This document shows positions 9,989 through 25,622 of a stretch of 64,000 nucleotides of DNA, one piece after another. The notes below the pieces were generated by a model. It did no database searches and was not told the DNA's origin. It saw nothing but the letters and a program-made list of their open reading frames with translations. Made by a program: the position numbers and the translations under genes. Every line of letters begins with the position of its first letter. Within the stretch, counting starts at the first letter, position 1. The stretch is from Candidatus Latescibacterota bacterium (GTDB lineage Bacteria; Latescibacterota; UBA2968; UBA8231). Location: NCBI GenBank assembly GCA_965217585.1, contig OZ244561.1, positions 5,536,001-5,600,000 of the forward strand, in the 5' to 3' direction.

Positions 9989-11308
9989 CCGCCGGAACAG
10001 ATCCTCCTGAGGCGGTACTTCGAGCAGTTCGTCCAAGGTTCCGCGCTCCAGGCCCTCGGCAATAACGGCAAAACTCTCCCGCACCACGGCCGCAGTCTGT
10101 TCGACCTCGGCCTCACCGTGGGCGCAATTGAACATAAACCCAGCCGCCAAGATCACGCCGCGGCGGGCGTTCTCCTGGATGAACAGCGTGTGGACCTTGG
10201 CAGCCGTCACGGCATCCTCCGCGCCCAAGCGGATGCGGGGATGCGCAGCCACCCCCTCGCAGCTAGCGTCGAGCCCAGCGGCCGCCGCTGCCGCGTCGAT
10301 CTGCTCCTTAAAGAAGGTGCCGATGCGCTGAAAGTGACCCACGGCGTCGCGGCGCTCCAACTCGCGCAAGGTCGCCAGCGAGGCCGCCACGCCGATGTTG
10401 TCGTCCCAATAGGCGCTGGAGATAAACATCTGCGCAGCCGGTGCCATAAACTCCCGCTTGCCGACCACTGCGCCCATTGGATAGCCGTTGGAGATGGCCT
10501 TGGCAAAAACGGACATATCCGGCGTCACACCCGTGTATTCCTGGGCGCTGCCCAAGGCTACGCGGAACCCCGACGACACCTCGTCGAAGATGAGCACCAC
10601 CCCGTAGCGCGACGCCAACTCCCGCACGTTTTCCAAGTAGCCCGGCGGCGGCTCTTCGGAGCGCATCGGCTCCATGATGATGCAGGCCAACTCGCCGGCG
10701 TGCTCTTCGAGCAGGGCGGTGAGTTCATCGACATCGCCATAGGTAAAGGGCAGGGCCGTGCCCTCCAGACAGCGGGGCACGCCAATCGGCTCAATGCCAT
10801 TAAAGAGATGAGAGGCCAGCCGCTCGGCCCCGATATTGGCGGCCTGGTACCAGTCGTGCCAGCCGTGGTAGCCGCAAAACAGCACCTTGTCGCGGCCGGT
10901 GACCCCGCGCGCGATCCGCACCGCAATGGTGCAGGCCTCGCCCCCGCCCTTGCAGTAGCGCACCATTTCCGCCGAGGGCACGATCCTCACTAGCTCCTCG
11001 GCCAGCTCCACGGCCGACTCCTGGACGATGCTGTAGAGCGTCCCTCGGTCAATCTGGGCGCGGACCGCGGCATCGACGACCTCGTCGGCATAGCCCAAGA
11101 TCACCGGCCCCACGGCACTGGTCCAATCGATGTATTCGTTGCCATCCACATCCCAGATGCGACAGCCTTTAGCGCGCTCGGCGTAGATGGGGCTGACACC
11201 GAGCGCGGCCCGGGCGGGCCGCCGGCTGATGAGCTGGGTGGTGCCGGGGATGAGCGCTTTGGCGCGCTCGTAGATTTGCAATGAGCGGCGCACCGAGTGT
11301 TCTCGCAT
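9977..11308 (-). CDS. Class III PLP aminotransferase (glutamate-1-semialdehyde aminomutase-like)
   Basis: AKGCRIWDVDGNEYID, YHGWHDW, LIFDEVSSGFR, FAKAISNG. Start MREHSV at 11308. Confidence 0.9.
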   Translation of the reverse strand: MREHSVRRSLQIYERAKALIPGTTQLISRRPARAALGVSPIYAERAKGCRIWDVDGNEYIDWTSAVGPVILGYADEVVDAAVRAQIDRGTLYSIVQESAVELAEELVRIVPSAEMVRYCKGGGEACTIAVRIARGVTGRDKVLFCGYHGWHDWYQAANIGAERLASHLFNGIEPIGVPRCLEGTALPFTYGDVDELTALLEEHAGELACIIMEPMRSEEPPPGYLENVRELASRYGVVLIFDEVSSGFRVALGSAQEYTGVTPDMSVFAKAISNGYPMGAVVGKREFMAPAAQMFISSAYWDDNIGVAASLATLRELERRDAVGHFQRIGTFFKEQIDAAAAAAGLDASCEGVAAHPRIRLGAEDAVTAAKVHTLFIQENARRGVILAAGFMFNCAHGEAEVEQTAAVVRESFAVIAEGLERGTLDELLEVPPQEDLFRRLVR

Positions 11309-13946: not shown

Positions 13947-14939
13947 TCACTCCTGCTCTTCCATCTGGTCGTAGAACTGGACGATCTTGCCCCGGTCTTC
14001 AGAGGCGTTGAAAGCCATGCCGGACCGCGGGTGCTGGTTGAGCAGGCCGGTGATCATGTAGGGATAGTCGTAGCCCCACATCAGCTTGGAGCGCAGCGAC
14101 TCAACGTGCTGCTCAATGCACTTGAGCACTGGGCGCAAGCGAAATTTCGGATTGTGTAAAAAGCCCAACAAAAGCTCCATCTGGCAATTGCCCGCGCCGC
14201 GACCCAAGCCGGCAAAACTCGCGTCCACGCAATTGGCCCCCAGTATCGCGGCTTCGATGGTATTGGCAAAGGCCAGTTGCCGATTGTTATGGGCGTGGAT
14301 CCCGACCTCGATCGGGGTACCCTCGAAGTATTCGAGAAACATGTTGCACAGCGCGCGGATTTGCTCGCTATAGAGCGAGCCAAAGCTATCGACCACGTAA
14401 ACAGCCCCCACGTCTGAGTGCACCAGCATCTCCAGCGCGCTCTTGACCTCGGATTCCGGCACGGTGGAAACGGCCATTAAATTTAGGGTCGTCTCATAAC
14501 CCTTGTCGCGGGCGTCCTTAATCATGTCCAAAGCCAGCGACATCTGGTGGATATAGGTGGCCACGCGGATCATGTCCAACACGCTTTCAGACGCCGGCAG
14601 TATGTCCGTCTTGTAATCGCTTTTCTCGGCATCGGCCATGGCCGCCAACTTCAGCGAGGTATTGTTGTCGCCGACGATGCGGCGGATGTCCTCCTCGCGG
14701 CAGTGCTTCCACGGCCCAAACTCGCCGGGCGGAAACTGCTCCCGCGAGTTGATATAGCCGATCTCCATGTAGTCGATCCCACTCTCGATGCAGGCCTCGT
14801 ACACGCCTTTGACCACCTCGTCGTCGAACCCATGGTCGTTCATCAGGCCGCCATCGCGGATCGTGACATCGACGACCTTGATTTCCTCCCGGTACCCGAG
14901 CCAATTATCGGCCCAAGTCGCGCGGTTTTCCTCGCTCAT
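13947..14939 (-). CDS. DRE-TIM aldolase (4-hydroxy-2-oxovalerate aldolase/HMGL-like)
   Basis: DVTIRDGG, VVDSFGS, GIHAHNN, GLGRGAGN. Confidence 0.85.
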   Translation of the reverse strand: MSEENRATWADNWLGYREEIKVVDVTIRDGGLMNDHGFDDEVVKGVYEACIESGIDYMEIGYINSREQFPPGEFGPWKHCREEDIRRIVGDNNTSLKLAAMADAEKSDYKTDILPASESVLDMIRVATYIHQMSLALDMIKDARDKGYETTLNLMAVSTVPESEVKSALEMLVHSDVGAVYVVDSFGSLYSEQIRALCNMFLEYFEGTPIEVGIHAHNNRQLAFANTIEAAILGANCVDASFAGLGRGAGNCQMELLLGFLHNPKFRLRPVLKCIEQHVESLRSKLMWGYDYPYMITGLLNQHPRSGMAFNASEDRGKIVQFYDQMEEQE

Positions 14940-15046
14940 TGCTCTCTCCTGTTTATGTATGTAACTCAAGTATTGTCGAAAGGATATATACTGCGGCACA
15001 ACCGGCGAAAGGTCAAACCGGCCACACCATGTCGCAGCCGATGGCT

Positions 15047-16123
15047 CTAGGCTTTCTCTACAATTATTGCGCTTAGCTTGTCCGCGTCGATCTCCACGCC
15101 CAAACCCGGCCCTTCAAACGGATACAAGTAGCTGCCCTCGGCCCGCACCCTTTCCGCGGCCGGCGACGCCGTGTACAGCACCGGCCCCATTGGGTCGCAA
15201 GGCAAGTTGGTGTTGGGCATGGCAATGCCAAGGCTGACCTGCGCCGAAACCCCCAGCGTCGATTCTTGGTCGGTGCCGATCAGGCAGCGGAATCCGGCCG
15301 CCTCCGCTAGGGCGAAAAGCCGGCGGATATGGGTCGGGCCGCCGCAGACGCAGGCGACGTTAAAGGCCGTGCAGGCCCTTCTTTCAATGGCTTCCATGCC
15401 CAGCTCTAGGCTGTTGATGTGCCAGCTCACCGGCAAGTCAACGCGCCGCACAAATTCGGCCGAGATGCGCAGACTGCGCGTGGGCTGCTCAAAGTGATAG
15501 GGCGCGTGATGGCGCAGGACATCGGCGTAGCGGACGGCTGTTTCCCAATCGGTGAAGCGCCCGGAAAAGTCGATGGACTTGAGCTTGAGCCGGTCGTCGA
15601 AGCGGCGTTTGGCTTCGCCTAAGAAGCGGTCGTCGAGCGCGCTATCGCCCGACACGTAGTAGCGGAACAGATGATGGCCCAAGTCGAGCAGCCGCTGGAG
15701 ATAGCCCAGCGTGCGCTCGAAGTCCTCTTTTACCTGCCAGCCAAAGATCGGATAGCAGCAATAGAGCCGGTCCCGCATCTTGCCGCCCAAAAGCCGATAG
15801 GCCGGCACTCCTTGGGCCTTGCCGTTGAGATCGTAGAGCGCCAGGTCAATCGCCGAGGCGAGGTGGAGGTCGGTTACTGAGCTGTGGAAGGTGTGGCCGC
15901 GCAACAGCTCGTTGATCTCGGTAATGGCCCCGGCGTCCCGCCCCACCAGCAGCTCGTTGTACTGCCGGGCAATGGCCGGCAAATCCTCGGCGCGACTGTC
16001 GGACGCCTCGCCCCAGCCCTCTGGGCCGTCATCGACAAAGACCTTGACCAACACGTGCCCGGAGATGTGGCCGTAGTAGCGCGGGGTCTCTATCTGAATG
16101 GTTTCTACTTTGGTGATTTTCAC
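15047..16123 (-). CDS. Mandelate racemase/muconate lactonising enzyme family protein
   Basis: MKITKVETI, AIDLALYDLNGKAQGVPAYRLLGG, FEQP, GPGLGVEID. Confidence 0.88.
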   Translation of the reverse strand: MKITKVETIQIETPRYYGHISGHVLVKVFVDDGPEGWGEASDSRAEDLPAIARQYNELLVGRDAGAITEINELLRGHTFHSSVTDLHLASAIDLALYDLNGKAQGVPAYRLLGGKMRDRLYCCYPIFGWQVKEDFERTLGYLQRLLDLGHHLFRYYVSGDSALDDRFLGEAKRRFDDRLKLKSIDFSGRFTDWETAVRYADVLRHHAPYHFEQPTRSLRISAEFVRRVDLPVSWHINSLELGMEAIERRACTAFNVACVCGGPTHIRRLFALAEAAGFRCLIGTDQESTLGVSAQVSLGIAMPNTNLPCDPMGPVLYTASPAAERVRAEGSYLYPFEGPGLGVEIDADKLSAIIVEKA

Positions 16124-16125
16124 GA

Positions 16126-16235
16126 CTAGCTCCTTTGCAAGCGGCCCAACGCCGCGAGTAGGTGGTCGATTGTGGCCTCAAGTAAGAAAAAGGCGATGCT
16201 GACGCGCAAGCCCTAGCGCCCGTGTGGCAGGAATT
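16126..16235 (-). repeat. Copy D of the class V aminotransferase 3'-end repeat; supplies the RBS of the downstream enolase-family gene
   Basis: Reads LPHGR*GLRVSIAFFLLEATIDHLLAALGRLQRS*, homologous to the end of 19731..20930. Confidence 0.9.
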
Positions 16236-16252
16236 TGTGAGCAGAGGCACCA

Positions 16253-17746
16253 TCAGTACACCATCTCCCGGTAGCTCTGTGCAATCTTCTCGATCGCCAC
16301 GACGTACGCCGCGGTGCGCAGGTCGCGCACCTTGTCATGACTCAAAAACACCTCGCGCAGCTCGTTGTACGCCTGCCGCATGGTGTCGTCCAGGCCGGAT
16401 CGCACCAGGTCCAGCTCGTCGGCTCCGCGCACCAGATCGTGCCGCTGGGTTTCGGGAAGGGGTTTGCCGACCGCAGTCTCGATGGCCTCGACGATGCGCT
16501 GCCCGCGCAGCTCGTCGATACGCCGGTCCATGCGGCCGAAGCGAATGTGGGACAGGTTCTTGATCCATTCGAAGTAGGAGACTGCCACGCCCCCTGCGTT
16601 CAGGTAAGCGTCCGGAATCACCACTTTGCCGCGGTCGCGCAGGATTTTGTCCGCCTCGAAAGTGATCGGACCGTTGGCGGCCTCGGCGATCAGCGATGCC
16701 TGGATGCGCTCGGCGTTTTCGGTGGTGATCACCGACTCAGTGGCCGCGGGGATCAGGATGTCGCAGTCTGCTTCCAGCAAAAAACTGCCGTCCTCCACGA
16801 ACTCGGAGTCCCGAAAGCCCTGGCCGCCGCCCTTTTCGCGGCGATAGGTGGCGAGCTCCTCGATGTCTAGCCCATCCTCACACACCACGGCCCCCTCGCG
16901 CTCGATCAGGGCAACCACCCTGACGCCATCCTCTTCGGACAGGAACTTCGCGGCGTGGTACCCGACGTTGCCCAGGCCCTGGATGATTACGCGCTTGCCC
17001 TCCAGATCTCCATCCATCCCGGCCCTCTGCACATCTTCGGGATGGCGGAAGAATTCCCTGAGGGCGTACTGCACCCCGCGCCCCGTCGCCTCGGTACGGC
17101 CGCGGATTCCGCTCATGTGCACGGGTTTGCCGGTGACACAGGCGACGGCGTTGATGTCGTTGGGATACAGGGCGCGGTAGGCATCCGCGATCCACCCCAT
17201 CTCGCGCGGGCCCGTGCCCATGTCGGGAGCCGGTACGTTGAGGCTGGGGCTGATGTAGCCCTTCTTCGCCAGCTCCATCGTGAAATTACGAGTGATCAGC
17301 TCGAGTTCGGCGGCGTCGTAGTCGCGCGGATCGATCTGCAGGGCACCCTTAGAGCCCCCGTACGGGACGTCGACGATGGCGCACTTGTAGGTCATCAGGG
17401 CGGCCAGGGCCTCGACCTCGTCCTGGTCGGCGATCGGCGCATAGCGGATGCCGCCTTTCACCGGCAGGTAGTGCTCGCTGTGGACGGCGCGCCAGCCGGT
17501 GAAGACCCGGAATTCGCCCCGTATGTGAACGGGGAAGCTGACCTGGAACACGGAGTTGCAGGTCCTGATCTGGTTGGCGAGGCCCGGCTCGAGCTCCATC
17601 GTGGCGGCGGCCGCCTCGAACATCCGGTCGACGCTGCCCTTGAACGAATTCCTTAGCTCTTTCAAACCGGACCTCGCAGAACCTCTTTTTTGTACATGCT
17701 CTTCAACCCCTATTCTTCGATGATGGCCAGAGTTCGGTTTCTCCAT
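16253..17746 (-). CDS. gdhA: Glu/Leu/Phe/Val dehydrogenase (glutamate dehydrogenase)
   Basis: KGGIRY, MTYKCA..DVPYGGSKG, PAPDMGT, GRTEATGRGV, QGLGNVG, EAANGP, NAGGVAVSYFEW. Start uncertain. Confidence 0.92.
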   Translation of the reverse strand: MEKPNSGHHRRIGVEEHVQKRGSARSGLKELRNSFKGSVDRMFEAAAATMELEPGLANQIRTCNSVFQVSFPVHIRGEFRVFTGWRAVHSEHYLPVKGGIRYAPIADQDEVEALAALMTYKCAIVDVPYGGSKGALQIDPRDYDAAELELITRNFTMELAKKGYISPSLNVPAPDMGTGPREMGWIADAYRALYPNDINAVACVTGKPVHMSGIRGRTEATGRGVQYALREFFRHPEDVQRAGMDGDLEGKRVIIQGLGNVGYHAAKFLSEEDGVRVVALIEREGAVVCEDGLDIEELATYRREKGGGQGFRDSEFVEDGSFLLEADCDILIPAATESVITTENAERIQASLIAEAANGPITFEADKILRDRGKVVIPDAYLNAGGVAVSYFEWIKNLSHIRFGRMDRRIDELRGQRIVEAIETAVGKPLPETQRHDLVRGADELDLVRSGLDDTMRQAYNELREVFLSHDKVRDLRTAAYVVAIEKIAQSYREMVY

Positions 17747-17762
17747 GCCGCGTAATATATGG

Positions 17763-17828
17763 CTATCGCGCCGCGAACAGTTCGTCGATTTCGGCCTCAA
17801 GTAAGAAAAAGGCGATGCTGGCGCGCGC
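17763..17828 (-). repeat. Copy C (partial) of the aminotransferase 3'-end repeat
   Basis: Reads ARASIAFFLLEAEIDELFAAR*; shares GGCCTCAAGTAAGAAAAAGGCGATGCTG with copy D. Confidence 0.9.
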
Positions 17829-17840
17829 ACAAGCGGCTGA

Positions 17841-19141
17841 TTACTCAATCAAGACCGGCTCACTCGCATTGACAAACAGCACGTCGTTCGCCCCGTTATA
17901 GCACCGGAGCGTTTGCTCCACCTCGCCCGATTTGATTTCGTCATCGGTCAGGCCCGCGATGACCAGATCGGCCTTAGAGGATCGGAGCGATACCTCAAAT
18001 TCGAGAGCTTCACTGGTCGTGCAAGGAACCGACGTCACATTCTGCTTAGAGATCGGCAATCGTCCCTCCATCATCAAATTGGAGAGCTTCTGCGTTTCGC
18101 GTTCTGCGTCTCCAGAGTCGAGGCATGCGAAGAGCCGAATCTCGTCTGGAGCGTCTGCGCCAGCGCCATCTGGAACGAAGGACAAATCAGGGAATCCACG
18201 AAAATGCCCGCCCCGCTGACCTCGGTCCGCTCGATCAGTCTGCCCACATGGAGGCGGGCCTCGATCTCTTCAGTGAACGAGTATTCTCCCTGAAAAAACT
18301 GAATGAAGTGCCCAAACCCATGCCGGTGGCTGATCCAGCGCAGCAGGTCGAAGTGCCCCAGCCGGCGTTCGCCGAAACGGGTCACCGCGATAATCGAGGG
18401 CCGCCAGCCCCCTTCCGATTTCACCGCGCGGCTCTTCTGCAGCGTGATCTGCAGACGGCGAGTCAATTGGAACATCGTCCCTTGGAAAATCGCCGTCAGG
18501 TCGCGCTCGCCCCGCCGCGAGCGTCGCAGTCCGAAGTAAGTCGCTACCATGAGAGAGATCGCTACAAGCGCGTATAGCGCGTTCATTTGGATCATCATCA
18601 GGCCACACATTACTGCGCCTAGCAGCGATAGGTACCAGCGCGAATGGAAGGTAGGGCGGTACGACGGATTGCCAGCGAAATATTCTAGGAATGATACCGA
18701 GCAAAGGGCACCATAAGTCACCATGAAGAACATGCTGAGAATATGGGCGATAAAGTCAATGTCTCCCAAAACAACGAATGCGATGGCGATGGCACTCGAC
18801 ACGCAGGTCGCAGACACCGGCTCCTGTGCCCGGCCCCAACCTTTCGCCAGCAGGCGATTCAGTTTTGGAACGGGCAGCACGTTGTCGCGCGCTAGCGCTT
18901 GCAGAGTTCTGGGAGCGACGAGGATCGAACCAAGAATGGTCACGAGATGCCCGATAACGATGATCATGAGGCTGCCCCAAAGGCCGACATGCGCAACCGC
19001 GTATCCGAATCGCAGGAAGAGGATCGCTCCGAGGATCGTGCTGATTGACGCGAGAAAAACAGGCGCGGTGCCAAAGCCGTGCCCCACTTGGGAAGATTCA
19101 GATGGGCTACCTGTAGCCGGTCCAGTTTGTTGTGATGTCAA
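17841..19141 (-). pseudogene. APC/SLC12-like amino-acid or cation-chloride permease, internally deleted and frameshifted
   Basis: FGTAPVFLASISTILGAILFLRFGYAV jumps to GSILVAPRTLQAL (many TMs missing); NPSYRPTF present; frame break near 18145; C-terminal LMMEGRLP...DVLFVNA lies in another frame. Confidence 0.75.
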
Positions 19142-19146
19142 CGGGC

Positions 19147-19269
19147 CTTGCTCCTTTGCTTGGCCAAGCTGTTCAGCGCTGCGCGCAGTTCGTCGATTTC
19201 GGATTCCAGTAAGAAAAAAGCGATGCTGGCGCGCAAGCCCTCGCGCCCGCGCGGCAGCCTTTTGAGCAC
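19147..19269 (-). repeat. Copy B of the aminotransferase 3'-end repeat
   Basis: Reads VLKRLPRGREGLRASIAFFLLESEIDELRAALNSLAKQRSK, colinear with the real gene end. Confidence 0.93.
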
Positions 19270-19290
19270 GGCCAATTCCATGTTGTGAAT

Positions 19291-19318
19291 TTGACAATCA
19301 CCAGATTGTATATACATT
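19291..19318 (+). promoter_or_regulatory. Sigma70-type promoter with palindromic operator TGTATATACA for the brn locus
   Basis: TTGACA at 19291; palindrome 19307-19316 overlaps a TACATT -10. Confidence 0.6.
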
Positions 19319-19358
19319 TAAATAGTATTAATTGGCGACAGAAGAGAGGCCCACAACT

Positions 19359-19676
19359 ATGTCAAAAGTCAAGCGTGACATCGTCCTCCCGACCCCAGAG
19401 GAAGACGCTGCCATCCGCGCTGGCATCGCCGCCGATCCAGACACGCGAGAACTCACCGCCGAAGAGATTGCTCGTATGCGCCCGGCAAGTGAGGTCGTCC
19501 CTCATATCGTCGAACGCTATCAGCTCACCCGCGGCAAACAGAAAGCCCCGACTAAAAAGCACATATCGATTCGTCTTGACGCCGACCTTGCGGAGCATTT
19601 CCGCAACAGTGGTCCAGGCTGGCAGACGCGGTTGAACGACACGCTGCGGCGCGCGGTTTTTGGCGATGCGGAATGA
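19359..19676 (+). CDS. BrnA-family antitoxin (orphan)
   Basis: [40 protein letters not shown]. Confidence 0.9.
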
Positions 19677-19730
19677 GCGGCTGGATTGCAGGAGATTGGT
19701 GCGTCGGCGTTGAGCGGGCGACCTTCACTC

Positions 19731-20903
19731 CTAGCTCCTTTGCTTTGCCAAACTGCCCAGCGCCGCGAGCAACTCGTCGATTTCGGATTCGAGTAGGAAA
19801 AAGACAATGCTGGCGCGCAAGCCTTCGCGCCCGTGCGGCAGCGGCTTGATCACCATGTTCCACTCTTCTCGCAGGGCTTGACTCAATTCCTCCCCCTTCC
19901 ATCCTGCCAACCCAAAGCTGACCAGCGCCGCAGACCGCTGCGGAGAGCGCGGAGTGTAGAGCACTGCGCCCGGGATCTGCGCCAGTCCCTCCTTCAGCCG
20001 CCCAGCCAACGCCCCCGTCCGCGCCCAAATCGCCTCCAGCCCGATGGCCGACAGATACTCAACGGCAAAGGCCCAAGCCAGCACCAGCGGCCAACACCAA
20101 GGGCCGTACTGAAAGCGCTCGGCTGTCTCGTGTAGCGCGAAGGTATCCGCCACCGGGTCCAGCCACTGTTCGGCCCGCCCGCCGGCATAGCGCACCTGCA
20201 CCGCGTCGAGGGCCTCCTGCCGCACGTAAAGCAAGCCCGCGGCATACGGTGCGTACATCCACTTATAGGAGAGCAAACCGGCAAAATCGCACCCCAGCGC
20301 GTGCAAGTCCAAAGGGTACAGCCCCGCCGAATGCGCCAGATCCACAAAGCTGCGCACCCCCCGCGTCCGCGCTGCCGCGCAAATCCGCTCCACCGGCAGG
20401 CGGTATCCCAAATCCGTCGTCACATGGCTCAGGGCCACCAGCTTGGTCCGCTCCCCCAGCCGCTCCTCCACGGCCTGCACCTGCCCATCGTCGTCGTCAA
20501 TCAGCGGCACCTTTATCACCTCGACCCCGTACAAATCCCGCAAGTGCAGAGCCGGCAAAAGCAACGCCGCTTCCTCATCCGCGCTGATCACAATCTCGTC
20601 CCCAGCCGCCCACTCCATCCCCCGCACCACCGTCTGAAATCCCTCGCTGACTCCCCGCATCAGAGCCAATTCCCCAGCCTCCACGCCGAAAAACTGCGCC
20701 AGCCGCTCCATCGCCGCCTTGCGCCGAGGATACTCTTCCTCTGGATAGACGATGTGCAAAGGCCCCCGCCGCACCATCTCTTCCGTCCACCGCGTGTACT
20801 CAGCAGCCACCGGCACCGGCGTAATACTCACTCCCCCATTCTGGAACCAAGTGTACTGCTCCAGCGCGGGAAAATCGCGGCGAATCGCTTGGACATCCAT
20901 TGC
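19731..20903 (-). CDS. Class V PLP aminotransferase/cysteine desulfurase-like enzyme
   Basis: IRRDFPAL, VDLAHSAG, SYKWMYAP, LRAS near the C-terminus. Its last ~40 codons are repeat copy A. Start approximate (MDVQAIRR). Confidence 0.85.
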   Translation of the reverse strand, partial: AMDVQAIRRDFPALEQYTWFQNGGVSITPVPVAAEYTRWTEEMVRRGPLHIVYPEEEYPRRKAAMERLAQFFGVEAGELALMRGVSEGFQTVVRGMEWAAGDEIVISADEEAALLLPALHLRDLYGVEVIKVPLIDDDDGQVQAVEERLGERTKLVALSHVTTDLGYRLPVERICAAARTRGVRSFVDLAHSAGLYPLDLHALGCDFAGLLSYKWMYAPYAAGLLYVRQEALDAVQVRYAGGRAEQWLDPVADTFALHETAERFQYGPWCWPLVLAWAFAVEYLSAIGLEAIWARTGALAGRLKEGLAQIPGAVLYTPRSPQRSAALVSFGLAGWKGEELSQALREEWNMVIKPLPHGREGLRASIVFFLLESEIDELLAALGSLAKQRS

Positions 20904-20905
20904 AT

Positions 20906-22084
20906 TTAATCCGGGGATACGACGCCGCAATAGTCAGCCGCGGCCAGCGCGTACACTTGCGCCGCCTTCTCCAGCCGATCCACCTCCACCCACTCCACAT
21001 CCGCGTGTGCCGTCTCGTTCGAGGGGCCGTAGTAAAAGGTCGGCAACCCCGTCCCATGCACGTATAAATTGGCGTCCCCCACAATCCGCATCCCTACCAG
21101 CTCTGCCTCTCGCCCGGTCACTTGCTCGTGCGCCCGTCCCACCGCTTGCACGACCCCATCGTCGGCGGACGTCTCAAACGGCTCGCGCTCGTGCTCCATT
21201 TTGACCCGCAGGCCCAACCCCCCAGCCTCAGCTAACGGCCGCGCCAAGGCTTCCAACTCCGCTAGTACCTGCGGCGCAACGCGCCCGGGCAACCAGCGCC
21301 GGGTCCCCGTCAGCGTGCAGCAAAGCGGCGTGCGATTGAAATAGTCGCCCCCGGCAACCATGCCTAAGTCGATTCGCTCGGCACCGGCCAAGGCATGTGC
21401 CGGCCCTGCGTCGAGCTCGAGTTGATACTGGTGGATCCGCTCGATGAGCGCGCCCACAAAGCGGAGTGGATTTTCCGCAAAGGGTACGTACTGGGTGTGC
21501 TTGCCGCCAGCGGCCGATTCGAGCGCGATGGTAAAGACCATAGACCCCATGCTCATCACCCACAGCGCGTCGCGGCCCTCGACAATCAAGATCCGGTCGC
21601 CGCCAATCCGGCCGCTGTTGCGATCGGCAATCAGCGCCAGCGGCCCGTCCTTTTGCGCCTCGACCTCTTCGTGCCCCACAATCGCCGTCAGCCACAAGTC
21701 GCCCTGCAACTCTACTCCGCTTGCCAAGAGCGCCTTGACTGCGCCCAACGCCGCGGCCATTCCTCCCTTCATGTCGGTCGCCCCTCGTCCGTACACGCGG
21801 TTGCCCTCGCGGCGGGCGGGTGGGCAGGCCCCCACGGGAATGGTGTCGAGATGGCCATTGAGCATCAGCGTGGGGCCATCCCCTCGGCCCGCGATGCGCG
21901 CGTAGAGGTTATTGCGTCCCGGAGTCACCTCCCGCACATCGACCTCTAAGCCGATCTCGCGCATCATGGCTTCATAGGCGTGGCATACTTCGGCTTCGGC
22001 CATGGTTACGCTGTAAATATCGACCAATTCCCGGGTCCGCTCGACCACCCATTCTCGGTCGATAGCTGCGATTAATTTTTCCAT
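20906..22084 (-). CDS. M20-family metallohydrolase (ArgE/DapE-like)
   Basis: LNGHLDTIP, YGRGATDMKGG, GHEE, AHADVEWV. Confidence 0.9.
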   Translation of the reverse strand: MEKLIAAIDREWVVERTRELVDIYSVTMAEAEVCHAYEAMMREIGLEVDVREVTPGRNNLYARIAGRGDGPTLMLNGHLDTIPVGACPPARREGNRVYGRGATDMKGGMAAALGAVKALLASGVELQGDLWLTAIVGHEEVEAQKDGPLALIADRNSGRIGGDRILIVEGRDALWVMSMGSMVFTIALESAAGGKHTQYVPFAENPLRFVGALIERIHQYQLELDAGPAHALAGAERIDLGMVAGGDYFNRTPLCCTLTGTRRWLPGRVAPQVLAELEALARPLAEAGGLGLRVKMEHEREPFETSADDGVVQAVGRAHEQVTGREAELVGMRIVGDANLYVHGTGLPTFYYGPSNETAHADVEWVEVDRLEKAAQVYALAAADYCGVVSPD

Positions 22085-22241: not shown

Positions 22242-25200
22242 ATGATGACCAAAACGACGACGCGACTGACGACAGCGGTTGAAACCTATCTCGCCGACCT
22301 GCAACGAATCCGTGCCTCCGGCGGCGCGACTGGCGAGCGATCGAGCTATGGACCGCTCGCCAACCTGCTGAATGCTATCGGCGCAACGCTCAAGCCCAAG
22401 GTGTTTTGCGTTGGCGAGTTGGCCGATCAGGGAGCGGGGCATCCCGACTTTGGACTTTATGCAGCAAAGCAGGTGCAGAAGGGGCAACCGAAACAGGGGC
22501 AGGTGCCCGAAGGCGGCGTGGTCGAGGCGAAGGCGGCTGACGATGACGCTTGGCTGACGGCGGCGGGCGATCAGGTCAGCCGCTATTGGGACCATTATCG
22601 GCTGGTGCTGGTGACCAATACGCGCGACTTCGTGCTAATGGGTGAGGATGTGGCAGGGCGACCGGCTAAGCTCGAAACGTTTCGGCTGGCGACAAGCGCG
22701 GCGGAGTTCGCGCAACGGTTGGAGAGTCCGCGTGCCTTTGCCGGTGAGGTCAGCGCGGGTCTAGGGGAATATCTGTGCCGAGCGTTGTCGCATCGGGCGC
22801 GGCTGGCCGAGCCGAAGGACTTGGCTTGGCTGTTGGCGTCTCATGCCCGCGATGCGCTAGCGCGGGTCGAAGCCGCGGGCGATGCGCCGTCGTTGGCAGC
22901 GGTACGGGCGGCACTGGAAGAGGCGCTGGGCGTCCGCTTTGAGGGCGAACGGGGGGCGCGGTTTTTCCGTTCGACGCTGGTGCAGACGCTGTTCTACGGG
23001 GTGTTTTCCGCTTGGGTGCTGTGGGCGCGGCAAACACCGCCGCCCGTAAAAGCGTTCAATTGGCGCGAAGCGGTTTGGTATTTGCGGGCACCAGTGCTAC
23101 GGGCACTGTTCCAACAAATCTCCGATCCCGGTCGGCTGCAACCGCTCGGCCTCGTCGAGGTGCTGGACTGGACGTCTGCTGCGCTCGACCGGGTGGATTG
23201 CGACGCCTTTTTTGCCCGCTTCAACGAGGGCGAGGCCGTAACCTATTTCTACGAGCCGTTCCTCGAAGCCTTTGATCCCGATTTACGCAAGCAGTTGGGC
23301 GTTTGGTACACGCCAGCCGAAGTGGTGCGTTACATGGTTGCCCGGGTCGATAAGGCGCTGCGGGATGATCTCGGCATTGCCGACGGGCTAGCCGCGGAAA
23401 ACGTCTATGTGCTCGATCCGTGCTGCGGCACTGGGGCGTATCTGGCGGAAGTGCTGCGCCGCATTGCCGCCAATCTGGAAAGTCAGGGGTTGGGTGCGCT
23501 CACTGGCGCACGGGTCAAGCAGGCGGCGACCGAGCGCGTATTCGGCTTTGAGATTATGCCTGCACCTTTTGTCGTCGCCCATCTACAAGTTGGGTTGACC
23601 ATGCAGGCGCTCGACGCGGCGCTGGCCGATGACGGGCAGGAACGCGCCCAAGTGTTCCTCACCAATGCGCTGACCGGCTGGGAGCCGCGCCCGACCAAGC
23701 CGCTGCCGTTCCCCGAACTGGAGGAAGAACGCGACCGTGCCGAGCGGGTGAAGCAGGAGACGCCGATTCTGGTGATCTTGGGCAATCCACCTTATAACGG
23801 TTTTGCTGGAATGGCGGTGGACGAGGAACGCGAGCTGTCGGAAGCCTACCGCATGACCAAGCGGGTGCGCCGACCTGAAGGCCAAGGGCTGAACGATCTC
23901 TATGTCCGCTTTTTCCGCATGGCTGAACGGCGCATTGCGAAGACGGGCCAAGGCGTGATGTGCTTCATTTCCAACTATTCTTGGCTCGACGGGCTGTCGT
24001 TTACGGGGATGAGGGAACGCTATCTGGAGGAGTTCAACGCGGTCCGTATTGACAACCTGCACGGCGACCGCATCATCTCGGAATATGCGCCTGATGGGCG
24101 GACCAGCGAAACAGTTTTTGCGCTTCAGGGACAATCGCCGGGCATCAAGGTTGGCACCAGCATCGCCTTGCTTTCCAAGTCGGGAATCGCCGCCGATACA
24201 TCGACAGGCGGACGTATTCTGTATCGTGATTTCCATCAGGCAAAAGCCGATGAAAGACGACAAGCGCTGTTGGACAGTCTCGACGCCACCGGAATCGATG
24301 CAGGCTATACAGCATTGAAACCCAATCTTCGCCTCGGCTTGCCATTCAAGCCAGCGGTCGTCAGCGAGGATTGGTTCGACTGGCCGGCGCTGCCCGATTT
24401 GTTTCCGGTGTCGTTTCCCGGCGTTCAGACTAAGCGTGACTCGTTCCTTATCGATGTCGATCTCGACCGACTCAAGGCGCGGGTCGCCGATTACTTCGAC
24501 GCGGCTTTGAGCCATGAAGACATCGCACGACGTTATCCGGGAGCGATGAAGAATTCGTCGGGATTCGTGGTACGTGAGGCCCGCTCGGTGCGCGACGCGC
24601 TACTCTCACGCGGTGGGCCGGTCGATACCGGCTTTGTTCGTCATGCCTACCGGCCGTTCGATAATCGCTGGCTCTATTGGGAAGCAGGGCACGGTCTGCT
24701 TGGTCGTCCAGTACCCGACTATAGGCCACATGTGTTCGTGGGGAATATGTGGTTATCCGCCTCCCAGCATCTTCGAAAAGGGGAGACGGAACCTCAGACC
24801 TGTTTCACACATCATCTTGGTTCGCTGCATATGATTGAGCGCACCGCCCTTTGGTTCCCCGCTTACCTCCTCGACGACGGCCTCGGAATCGGCGACAATG
24901 AAATACAACGCCGCCCCAATTTGTCCAGGGCCGCGCAACGCTATCTCCACCGTCTCGGCGCGAATGTAGAGGACCTCTTCCACCACGTCCTCGCCACCCT
25001 CCACGATCCCGCTTACCGCGAGGCCAACGCCGGGGCGCTCCGCATGGAATGGCCGCGCATTCCCCTGCCGGGCTGGCCCGACGGCGAAGCTGACGGCGCA
25101 GCCAAGACGCTCGCTGCATCGGCGGAGCGAGGCCGCGAACTGGCCCGCCTGCTCGACCCCGAAGCACCAATACCCGGCGTTACCCAAGGCACGTTGCGCC

Positions 25201-25622
25201 CAGAGATCGCCGCCATCGCCGTGCCCGCCACCACCGACAGCCGCAACATGACCGGCGACGATTTCGCGCTCACCGCCGGATGGGGCCATTACGGAACAGG
25301 CGACGCCGTAATGCCGGGCCAAGGCCGCATCGTCGAACGCGAATACATACCAGAGGAACGCGCCGCGCTGGGGGATGCCATATCCGCGCTGGGCGAAAAG
25401 ACGCTGGACGTGTATCTGAACGACCACGCCTTCTGGCGCAACGTCCCCGCCGCAATTTGGGACTACAAACTCGGCGGCTACCAAGTCCTCAAAAAATGGC
25501 TATCCTACCGCGAGCGCGATGTCTTGGGGCGGGCGCTGACGCCGGAGGAAGTGCTGTACTTTGCGGAGATAGCGAGGAGGGTTGGGGGGATGTTGCTGGC
25601 GAGTGTTCGGGATATTTCGTGA
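22242..25622 (+). CDS. Fused restriction-modification enzyme (N6-adenine MTase with N-terminal nuclease-like and Type ISP-like C-terminal specificity region; no helicase)
   Basis: PDFGL...VEAK, YFYEPFLEAFD...GVWYTP, LDPCCGTG (motif I), GNPPY (motif IV), YRPFD, WDYKLGGYQVLKKWLSYR. Confidence 0.88.
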   Translation: MMTKTTTRLTTAVETYLADLQRIRASGGATGERSSYGPLANLLNAIGATLKPKVFCVGELADQGAGHPDFGLYAAKQVQKGQPKQGQVPEGGVVEAKAADDDAWLTAAGDQVSRYWDHYRLVLVTNTRDFVLMGEDVAGRPAKLETFRLATSAAEFAQRLESPRAFAGEVSAGLGEYLCRALSHRARLAEPKDLAWLLASHARDALARVEAAGDAPSLAAVRAALEEALGVRFEGERGARFFRSTLVQTLFYGVFSAWVLWARQTPPPVKAFNWREAVWYLRAPVLRALFQQISDPGRLQPLGLVEVLDWTSAALDRVDCDAFFARFNEGEAVTYFYEPFLEAFDPDLRKQLGVWYTPAEVVRYMVARVDKALRDDLGIADGLAAENVYVLDPCCGTGAYLAEVLRRIAANLESQGLGALTGARVKQAATERVFGFEIMPAPFVVAHLQVGLTMQALDAALADDGQERAQVFLTNALTGWEPRPTKPLPFPELEEERDRAERVKQETPILVILGNPPYNGFAGMAVDEERELSEAYRMTKRVRRPEGQGLNDLYVRFFRMAERRIAKTGQGVMCFISNYSWLDGLSFTGMRERYLEEFNAVRIDNLHGDRIISEYAPDGRTSETVFALQGQSPGIKVGTSIALLSKSGIAADTSTGGRILYRDFHQAKADERRQALLDSLDATGIDAGYTALKPNLRLGLPFKPAVVSEDWFDWPALPDLFPVSFPGVQTKRDSFLIDVDLDRLKARVADYFDAALSHEDIARRYPGAMKNSSGFVVREARSVRDALLSRGGPVDTGFVRHAYRPFDNRWLYWEAGHGLLGRPVPDYRPHVFVGNMWLSASQHLRKGETEPQTCFTHHLGSLHMIERTALWFPAYLLDDGLGIGDNEIQRRPNLSRAAQRYLHRLGANVEDLFHHVLATLHDPAYREANAGALRMEWPRIPLPGWPDGEADGAAKTLAASAERGRELARLLDPEAPIPGVTQGTLRPEIAAIAVPATTDSRNMTGDDFALTAGWGHYGTGDAVMPGQGRIVEREYIPEERAALGDAISALGEKTLDVYLNDHAFWRNVPAAIWDYKLGGYQVLKKWLSYRERDVLGRALTPEEVLYFAEIARRVGGMLLASVRDIS

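Follow-up and report, generated by a model that had tools for sequence, protein, structure and literature searches.

How does the end of one conserved gene come to stand four times in a row, with an unrelated gene between each copy and the next and no recombinase gene among them? This question is raised by a class V aminotransferase gene (AT5) in a stretch of 64,000 nucleotides (nt; henceforth the window) from a Candidatus Latescibacterota bacterium, positions 5,536,001 to 5,600,000 of contig OZ244561.1 (GenBank assembly GCA_965217585.1). The genome analysed, here G000, is metagenome-assembled and consists of a single contig of 7,323,734 bases; the stretch was found in sequencing runs of host-associated, sponge, coral and marine metagenomes. 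AT5 belongs to an operon on the minus strand whose order is M20-family peptidase, AT5, enolase-family gene and HMGL-like aldolase. Working from the letters of the window, a first-pass annotation had proposed that single-gene modules insert repeatedly at the AT5-enolase junction, each carrying a replacement 3' end, and thereby form an integron-like array. Comparison with relatives reveals an array of displaced gene ends that may well have been built and shuffled by homologous or homology-anchored recombination, and it does not bear out an integron-like enzyme system.

The AT5 stop codon and the enolase start of G000 are 3,610 nt apart, and this interval contains four copies of the AT5 3' end in direct orientation, termed A (the working end) to D. 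All four were recovered by repeat search and alignment, and their boundaries were refined by nhmmer with a profile of working AT5 ends (Table 1). Identity to copy A amounts to 84% over 116 nt for copy B, 85% over 59 nt for copy C and 81% over 102 nt for copy D, which abuts the enolase-family start at 16123. A search of all 7,323,734 bases returned these four copies only, the next-best match having an E-value of 0.037 over 21 nt, and the four-copy repeat is far beyond chance. With all copies in register, the repeat unit begins about 118-125 nt ahead of the AT5 stop and continues for 8-25 nt past it. The echo of the enolase start that had been noticed behind AT5 (GTGAAGGTCGCC versus GTGAAAATCACC) is real; relatives conserve it, in the form GCGTGAAGGTCGCG, at the edge of their brnA module.

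Three cargos lie between the copies, as originally described: brnA, a permease and a glutamate dehydrogenase-like gene (gdh). Codon-model gene calling mis-called brnA, and the cargo was annotated by Pfam on long open reading frames (ORFs). The description needs amendment in that brnA is encoded on the opposite strand, where a promoter of its own is predicted, and is an orphan antitoxin gene: exactly 231 nt with brnT are deleted relative to the brnT-brnA pairs of relatives, brnT being present in G013, G019, G030 and G011. The brnTA module is inverted and always opens with GCGTGAAGGTCGCG, followed by the brnA stop codon. The permease is likewise no intact gene: compared with a 756-residue relative, two internal segments (residues 70-278 and 567-640) are missing from the decayed remnant, which is also frameshifted.

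Relatives were sought in 61 genomes, 30 of them from the same genus. At a threshold of E ≤ 1e-60, AT5 had a match in 36 of the 61, including 24 of the 30 same-genus relatives, and the enolase-family gene in 35 of the 61; AT5 orthologues are 91-97% identical in 19 same-genus genomes. The expected variability of the AT5-enolase junction is borne out. The site is empty, with 6-10 nt from AT5 stop to enolase start, in four genomes (G015, G016, G017 and G023; AT5 74-77% identical) and on five metagenome contigs (L062, L063, L089, L090 and L092). In 15 genomes with both genes on one contig (AT5 91-96% identical), the filled interval measures from 251 to 27,628 nt. The mapped filled sites number 23, of which 18 are complete and 5 are cut by contig ends; each has 2-5 copies, and they differ in cargo, copy number and module order. 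The scan of metagenomes covered 33 loci, among which L084 alone belongs to the array clade. An arrangement identical in all relatives, which would have spoken against repeated insertion, is thus not what these genomes present.

The layouts can be written with b for brnTA, P for the permease, G for the dehydrogenase, R for a Rieske-cytochrome b-multihaem cytochrome module and M for an MscS-type channel, an oblique bar marking each copy. They read AT5/P G/enolase in G029 and G010, AT5/P/G/ in G027, AT5/P/b/ in G002, AT5/b/R/M/ in G019, AT5/M/R in G026, AT5/b M/R in G030 and AT5/(b remnant) R/G/ in G007, while the closed genome G013 and the metagenome contig L084 have the three-copy layout AT5/P G/b/. 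The extremes are G005, whose 251 nt comprise only remnants of b and of the M flank, and G011, whose 27,628-nt interval holds five copies and two brnA modules. Module order varies, with b/R/M in G019, M/R in G026, and b first in G000 and last in G013. Larger cargo blocks include a 5'-nucleotidase, a TrkA-type K+ channel, a Na/Pi cotransporter, CNNM, NhaA, RimK-AstE-protease and a sigma-54 regulator with MscK, among others. The copies do bound the modules, and genes start at the place of the enolase start, but the modules are not confined to single genes as had been supposed, since up to about 12 kb lie between copies.

A tree of the M20 and AT5 flank places all 19 of 19 array genomes in one clade (support 100/100) that adjoins the empty-site genomes, and the R- or M-bearing genomes form a subclade (98/97). 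Because the array genomes share one clade, the first insertion must be old. The arrays are largely inherited, tracking the flank phylogeny and changing on the time scale of species, and their turnover looks slow. Cargo of the relatives' filled sites (L049, L050, L053, L054 and L060) is dominated by genes for ion and osmotic balance, namely the K-Cl-cotransporter-like permease, MscS/MscK, the TrkA-type K+ channel, NhaA, the Na/Pi cotransporter, CNNM, RimK with AstE-like and protease partners, and glutamate dehydrogenase, which suggests a salt or osmotic adaptation islet at the AT5 site.

Replacement of gene ends, part of the earlier proposal, is recorded in copy B. Taken with the permease 5' end, copy B shares 93-95% identity across 325 nt with the stretch in G010, G011 and G029 that runs from the working AT5 end (type NSLAKQRSKAR-stop) into the permease start, where the permease TTG overlaps the AT5 stop. 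In five relatives, a working AT5 end fused to the permease start matches the right part of copy B. Since it matches relatives' AT5 ends fused to the permease start, copy B was once a working AT5 end and has since been displaced. Its first ~15 nt bear the signature AAAAGGCTG, as do copies that follow brnA in G002, G011 and G013, and because the left part carries this brnA-following signature, a crossover is placed inside copy B, near profile position 45. End A is of the type GSLAKQRS-stop, common to G001, G002, G013 and G022. The working AT5 end of G026 is D-type; copies therefore also recombine with the gene itself.

Comparison of the copies on either side of a cargo gives a mixed picture. Flanking copies are discordant in G000, in G002 and at dnaK (see below); the copies around brnTA in G019 are 95% identical over 95 nt, and in G013 and G011 flanking copies share lineage-specific features. 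Identity to the working end tends to drop along arrays (80, 79, 78 and 76% in G011; 90 and 82% in G002; 91 and 75% in G027), with L084 (81 and 83%) as an exception. Decay has left its own marks. Most of copy C is deleted between two CCA(G/T)CATCG words in G029, G010, G013, L084 and G001, and microhomology joints occur in deletion derivatives at the P-G junction (G029, G010, G013 and G001), in the G005 spacer and in L159. In L159, from a short-read metagenome-assembled genome (MAG; 10001-10242), AT5 is cut in frame to 47 N-terminal and 45 C-terminal codons, the deletion lying between two similar stretches of ~20 nt (VSITPVP / VIKPLP), of which the second is at the left edge of the unit; this deletion could be real or an assembly error.

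The edges of the unit are well defined. Behind each of four distinct cargos (b, G, P and M) its left end lies in the same span of about 10 nt, profile positions 25-35, and cargo start codons occupy the place of the enolase GTG, 6-12 nt behind an AGGAG inside the AT5 tail (Table 1). Among displaced copies (n = 28), conservation peaks at GGCTTGCGCG and CTTTTTCTTA, two blocks 17 nt apart, and in the AGGAG region, a pattern to which detection bias may contribute. Judged from these sequence blocks, the copies may serve as a leader or promoter, although this is a hint. A sigma-70-like promoter inside the copies was considered and rejected, as a consensus scan found the promoter of brnA only.

The scar at AT5 recurs across the genome. 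Self-comparison of G000 identified 49 genes whose 3' end recurs downstream in a second copy, for the most part non-coding; a few of these genes lie in paralogue clusters. In the corresponding control, 18 genes have a copy of their 5' end upstream, a count biased against 5' ends by uncertain start codons. Between gene end and copy lie 0.5-26 kb of cargo. In the 29 scar loci that were annotated, the repeats measure 51-260 nt with 76-100% identity, include the stop codon and extend 0-45 nt beyond it. Cargo consists mostly of defence and addiction genes, namely type I and type ISP restriction systems, Hachiman, GmrSD, orphan methylases, PD-(D/E)xK and HNH nucleases, MazF, DUF433/DUF5615 pairs and AbiE, in addition to an ankyrin protein and some metabolic genes.

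Only one of the 29 annotated loci contains a tyrosine recombinase, a four-copy array at 3.34-3.37 Mb. This array (G000:C1:3343753-3374027; L166 and L167) repeats the 3' end of a 472-residue gene over 30 kb and holds Fic, HepT, GmrSD, HD-CE/HATPase, ImmA-like and 'Beta protein' genes, ISAs1-type transposases and the tyrosine recombinase, 550 nt from one copy. At a second hot spot, found across the genus between queC and queF (G000:C1:997244-1007521; L172), a type I system lies between ~150-nt copies of the end of the upstream gene. Second copies are found 0.9-12.5 kb from the gene end in 12 relatives, and 10 others have a single copy. The nine islands of at least 5 kb that were fetched (among L176-L184) all contain a type I system and none contains an integrase, while their inner cargo varies between toxin-antitoxin (TA), insertion sequence (IS) and other defence genes. 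The dnaK end is duplicated in G000 alone, with a single site in each of the 26 other relatives that gave a match, and its two copies bear signatures of different lineages; in G012 and G029 the same cargo lies next to dnaK, with no second copy detected.

No gene recognisable as an integrase or transposase was found at the filled AT5 sites. Integrase, resolvase and transposase families are represented by none of the 62 ORFs of at least 130 residues in the four largest arrays. The other 19 filled sites are tiled by a catalogue of 28 proteins shared with these arrays, two of which (385 and 386 residues) have no family assignment, and leave gaps of at most 505 nt, most of them with brnT. PF00589 had no match among the window genes beside the array. 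G000 as a whole encodes five tyrosine recombinases and no serine recombinase, all five lying at least 0.86 Mb from the AT5 array. None of the five is an integron integrase (intI) by the NCBIfam integron-integrase cut-offs, below which all score far; one is XerD and another XerC-like, the latter below its curated cut-off. A third Xer-like recombinase (324 residues; G000:C1:6415858-6416829) is present as a single copy, 79-97% identical, in 28 of the 30 same-genus genomes, and with its presence in three of the four empty-site genomes it does not discriminate filled from empty sites. The remaining two are paralogues of mobile type that occur in only 3 of the 30 relatives.

Nor does the repeat unit resemble a structured recombination site. 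When both strands of copies A, B and D were folded as DNA, the z-scores for an attC-like fold came to +0.29 to +1.54, with 119-193 of 200 shuffles folding at least as well, and we rejected an attC-like or other structure in the unit. Among the repeated ends of 12 loci, no shared motif exceeded z 3.5. Pfam scan and folding thus agree with the first-pass annotation that the interval lacks an integrase, a transposase and an attC-like fold. Its suggestion of an integron-like site-specific system is not supported by the same data, there being no recombinase in the filled sites, no fold, and no motif shared at the 12 loci.

We give an even chance to a history of successive displacements and reshuffling driven by homologous or homology-anchored recombination. 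AT5 and the enolase-family gene would have started out as translationally coupled neighbours in the common ancestor of a single clade within this genus. Incoming DNA from relatives would have anchored in the conserved gene end and recombined repeatedly within the last ~120-140 nt of AT5, each event placing a working AT5 end next to new cargo and pushing the former end, with everything behind it, downstream. Two or more copies of ~140 nt would then act as portable homology, allowing modules to be inserted, deleted, duplicated and re-ordered by ordinary homologous recombination, either between copies within one genome or with DNA from relatives. Microhomology deletions would trim the modules, and a dedicated recombinase would not be needed. 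For G000 the likely order of events is D, then G, then P, with copy B as the working end, and last brnTA with end A, after whose arrival brnT and parts of the permease would have decayed. We propose that copies are retained for the ribosome-binding site, and possibly the promoter, that each provides to the gene behind it. Because the ~49 sites are unrelated and mobile integrases too rare in the genus, one sequence-specific enzyme is excluded as the common agent, and chimeric copies, microhomology deletions and lineage-discordant copies indicate the cell's own recombination.

Several points weigh against this explanation. The clustering of left ends within ~10 nt is tighter than expected of random joints and fits a fixed site or strong selection; selection for the ribosome-binding site of each copy may add to it. 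The first placement of each cargo between two copies is not explained, the origin of the cassettes being left unaccounted for, and the cargo genes fit between the copies with near ORF precision. RecA acts poorly on arms of only 60-140 nt with 80-95% identity, and no means of DNA uptake or transfer is known in these organisms, which are uncultured. The tyrosine-recombinase element in the other four-copy gene-end array of G000 means that integrase-made arrays of the same look exist in the lineage, and the third Xer-like recombinase found in 28 of 30 relatives could act in trans. Contigs from the sequencing runs (Logan contigs of multi-strain, host-associated samples) have a joint 19242>19833 in four of four runs, with a shorter side of 21 nt, and a joint that 'goes back 511' in one of four; co-occurring relatives explain these joints equally well as excision does, so that strain variants and excision are indistinguishable here.

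As an alternative, the array could be a relic of integrative elements that accumulated one behind another at an att site within the 3' end of AT5, their tyrosine recombinase having been lost from every module or supplied in trans by a transient element or a conserved host enzyme. Such elements classically leave direct repeats of a 3' end on both sides of each module, together with a replacement end, as described in the tycheposon preprint (bioRxiv 10.1101/2020.12.28.424599). The ~10-nt clustering of left ends, the TA module in the cargo, the recombinase 550 nt from a copy in the other four-copy array and the conservation of the third Xer-like gene all point the same way. We nonetheless consider this origin unlikely for AT5, where no recombinase gene was found at 23 filled sites, nor was one found in the nine queC-queF islands. 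Mobile-type integrases occur in 3 of 30 relatives only, three recombinases other than XerC and XerD would have to serve ~49 loci that have no motif in common at the 12 compared, and the conserved recombinase is also present in three of four empty-site genomes. Unlike typical islands, moreover, the AT5 cargo is operon-oriented and shares the ribosome site.

Long target duplication in place, with the copies diverging afterwards where they stood, would dispense with incoming gene ends altogether. It belongs to a published class (PMC2853133) in which no further mobile genes are present and a stop codon often lies within the repeats, and it agrees with the concordant copies around brnTA in G013 and G011, with the 95% identity over 95 nt in G019 and with the restriction or nuclease cargo at many other G000 loci. 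At AT5 it is decidedly improbable. Copies A and B of G000 differ by 16% and have the end types of different relatives (GSLAKQRS-stop versus NSLAKQRSKAR-stop), the brnA module brings the same ~15-30 nt of downstream copy wherever it is placed, the dnaK copies have different lineage signatures, and the AT5 cargo is without a nuclease. The concern that strain alleles were wrongly joined by the assembler is understandable for a metagenome-assembled genome in whose runs several related strains co-occur, yet such an artefact is extremely improbable: G000 is one 7.3-Mb contig, the three-copy layout AT5/P G/b/enolase is found in both the closed genome G013 and the unrelated metagenome contig L084, multi-copy arrays are also present in the short-read MAGs L107 and L159, and the copies differ in length and state of decay, unlike alleles.

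Displacement and shuffling by recombination in gene-end homology has parallels in several known systems. Insertion with long target duplication was reportedly treated by Nobusato et al. in 2000, and C-terminal displacement arrays reportedly by Jackson et al. in 2009. Cis-mobilizable elements (CIMEs) represent tandem accretion of integrative elements, and e14 in icd is an integrative element at the 3' end of a protein gene. The work on long target duplication (PMC2853133) describes inserts of <20 kb, direct repeats of >30 bp, no other mobile gene and an empty site in a relative; it reports single restriction-modification inserts with near-identical repeats (44/46 and 47/47) and notes operon-like targets. 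The AT5 site agrees in insert size, repeats, lack of a mobile gene and empty relatives, and its target gene is intact. Similarly flanked cargo at other G000 loci includes type I, type IV-like and orphan-methylase genes. It differs in having up to five stacked copies, 75-95% identical and chimeric between lineages, and a cargo of ion-transport genes, metabolic genes and a TA pair. The long-target-duplication literature found by our search describes no stacked arrays at a housekeeping gene.

For effector-immunity arrays of the type VI secretion system (T6SS), homology-facilitated illegitimate recombination followed by homologous recombination has been proposed (Kirchberger et al. 2017; PMC5361080). 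Like the AT5 array, C-terminal displacement at rhs, cdiA and T6SS loci leaves tandem orphan 3' fragments behind a working gene without a recombinase. There, however, each event brings a new toxin domain and immunity gene and is selected for changed function, whereas here the same aminotransferase tail is restored, and the cargo has nothing to do with the target gene: transporters, channels, a dehydrogenase, cytochromes and a TA pair. Tycheposon islands comprise stacked partial tRNA copies with integrases (bioRxiv 10.1101/2020.12.28.424599), and the Dehalococcoides ssrA islands comprise tandem integrative elements at a gene 3' end (PMC3146451). Such arrays share with AT5 the separation of modules by partial copies of the target 3' end, the pushing of older modules inward by newer ones and the existence of modules without an integrase, but at least some of their occupants have a site-specific recombinase, of which none was found at the 23 filled AT5 sites. 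Integrons resemble the AT5 array as ordered arrays in one orientation, with mostly promoterless modules of nearly ORF size that are read from upstream signals and separated by a repeated unit of ~60-140 nt, and a TA module occurs in the array. Unlike integrons, the AT5 array has no intI and no attI, and its unit is coding sequence of the neighbouring gene without an attC-like fold.

Our literature search found no description of such arrays in Latescibacterota. The AT5 locus stands out as an unusually deep and well-sampled stack whose cargo is not defensive; it occupies a junction in a housekeeping operon, and the genome around it is rich in such scars. A broader and tentative proposal, which we consider rather unlikely, is that gene-end repeats constitute a recombinase-free cassette system, in which ~140 nt combine a coding tail with the translational and perhaps transcriptional leader of the next gene, are copied at each insertion and then provide portable homology, so that modules of nearly ORF size could be gained, re-ordered and lost within a working operon through the cell's own recombination, and that this is a main route of gene gain in Latescibacterota. 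If gene ends alone were landing pads, bacteria poor in integrases and transposons could add genes beside conserved genes without breaking them, which would help to explain the origin of 'integrase-free' hot spots of gene gain. A displaced gene end would then be a signature of recent acquisitions, including defence genes, in metagenome-assembled genomes, and arrays would be a layered record of the order of acquisition. Known from 23 filled and 9 empty sites, as many as five layers deep and with chimeras that record crossovers, the AT5 array could serve as a model locus for the mechanism.

Table 1. Features of the AT5 locus (window positions), junction sequences of the repeat unit, cargo start codons and further scar loci of G000.
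Feature	Position	Strand	Sequence, basis or remark
M20-family peptidase, operon gene 1	20906..22084	-	Pfam PF01546, E 3.6e-26; kept upstream of AT5 in relatives
AT5, class V aminotransferase, target gene	19731..20930	-	Pfam PF00266, E 9.4e-44
Copy A, working AT5 3' end through stop, with post-stop echo GTGAAGGTCGCC	19716-19883; part common with B starts near 19853	-	repeat search, alignment, nhmmer
brnA antitoxin gene (module b)	19332..19676	+	Pfam PF14384, E 4.2e-22
Promoter-like site of brnA module, TTGACA-16-TACATT	19291..19318	+	consensus match only
Copy B, displaced former AT5 end, chimera	19131-19269	-	alignment, nhmmer, comparison with relatives
APC / K-Cl-cotransporter-like permease remnant (module P)	17844..19141	-	comparison with 756-residue relative
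Copy C, 59-nt AT5-end remnant cut at both ends, directly after permease stop codon	17768-17826	-	nhmmer
Glu/Leu-type dehydrogenase (module G), start codon uncertain	16253..17746	-	Pfam PF00208, PF02812; tblastn to G011 orthologue
Copy D, presumably oldest displaced AT5 end, in-frame TAG, 2-codon deletion, with AGGAG	16107-16230	-	nhmmer
Enolase-superfamily (MR_MLE) gene, ancestral downstream neighbour of AT5	15047..16123	-	Pfam PF13378, PF02746; directly after AT5 in empty-site genomes
HMGL-like aldolase, final operon gene	13947..14999	-	Pfam PF00682
Unit left edge after permease stop			GAG TAA then TCAGCCGCT
Unit left edge after dehydrogenase stop			TAC TGA then TGGTGCC
Unit left edge after brnTA promoter			AACATGGAATTGGCC then GTGATCAAAAGG
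Unit left edge after MscS flank			GATCnnCCTGCC
Permease start			TTG overlapping AT5 stop
MscS start			ATG 5 nt past AT5 stop
Rieske start			ATG ~12 nt past AGGAG
Enolase start			GTG 2 nt past AT5 stop
Example scar loci in G000			genome positions 997244/1007371, 5220074/5215713, 6726053/6731739, 3045192/3050854, 460087/459289, 4992990/4994217, 4572422/4574717

A locus at 4.716 Mb resembles a second three-copy array but was rejected as such, since it comprises two full paralogues and one orphan fragment. The paralogues (G000:C1:4714998-4728024; L165) are 54% identical, measure 521 and 528 residues and belong to no Pfam family; the orphan, corresponding to the last ~80 nt, lies 7.8 kb further on. 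Directly upstream of the AT5 operon and divergent from it, the window carries a type ISP restriction-modification gene of 1126 residues (Type_ISP_C, N6_Mtase; 22242-25622, plus strand). A second type ISP gene lies, together with MazF, between 86-nt repeats at 3.569-3.573 Mb of the genome.

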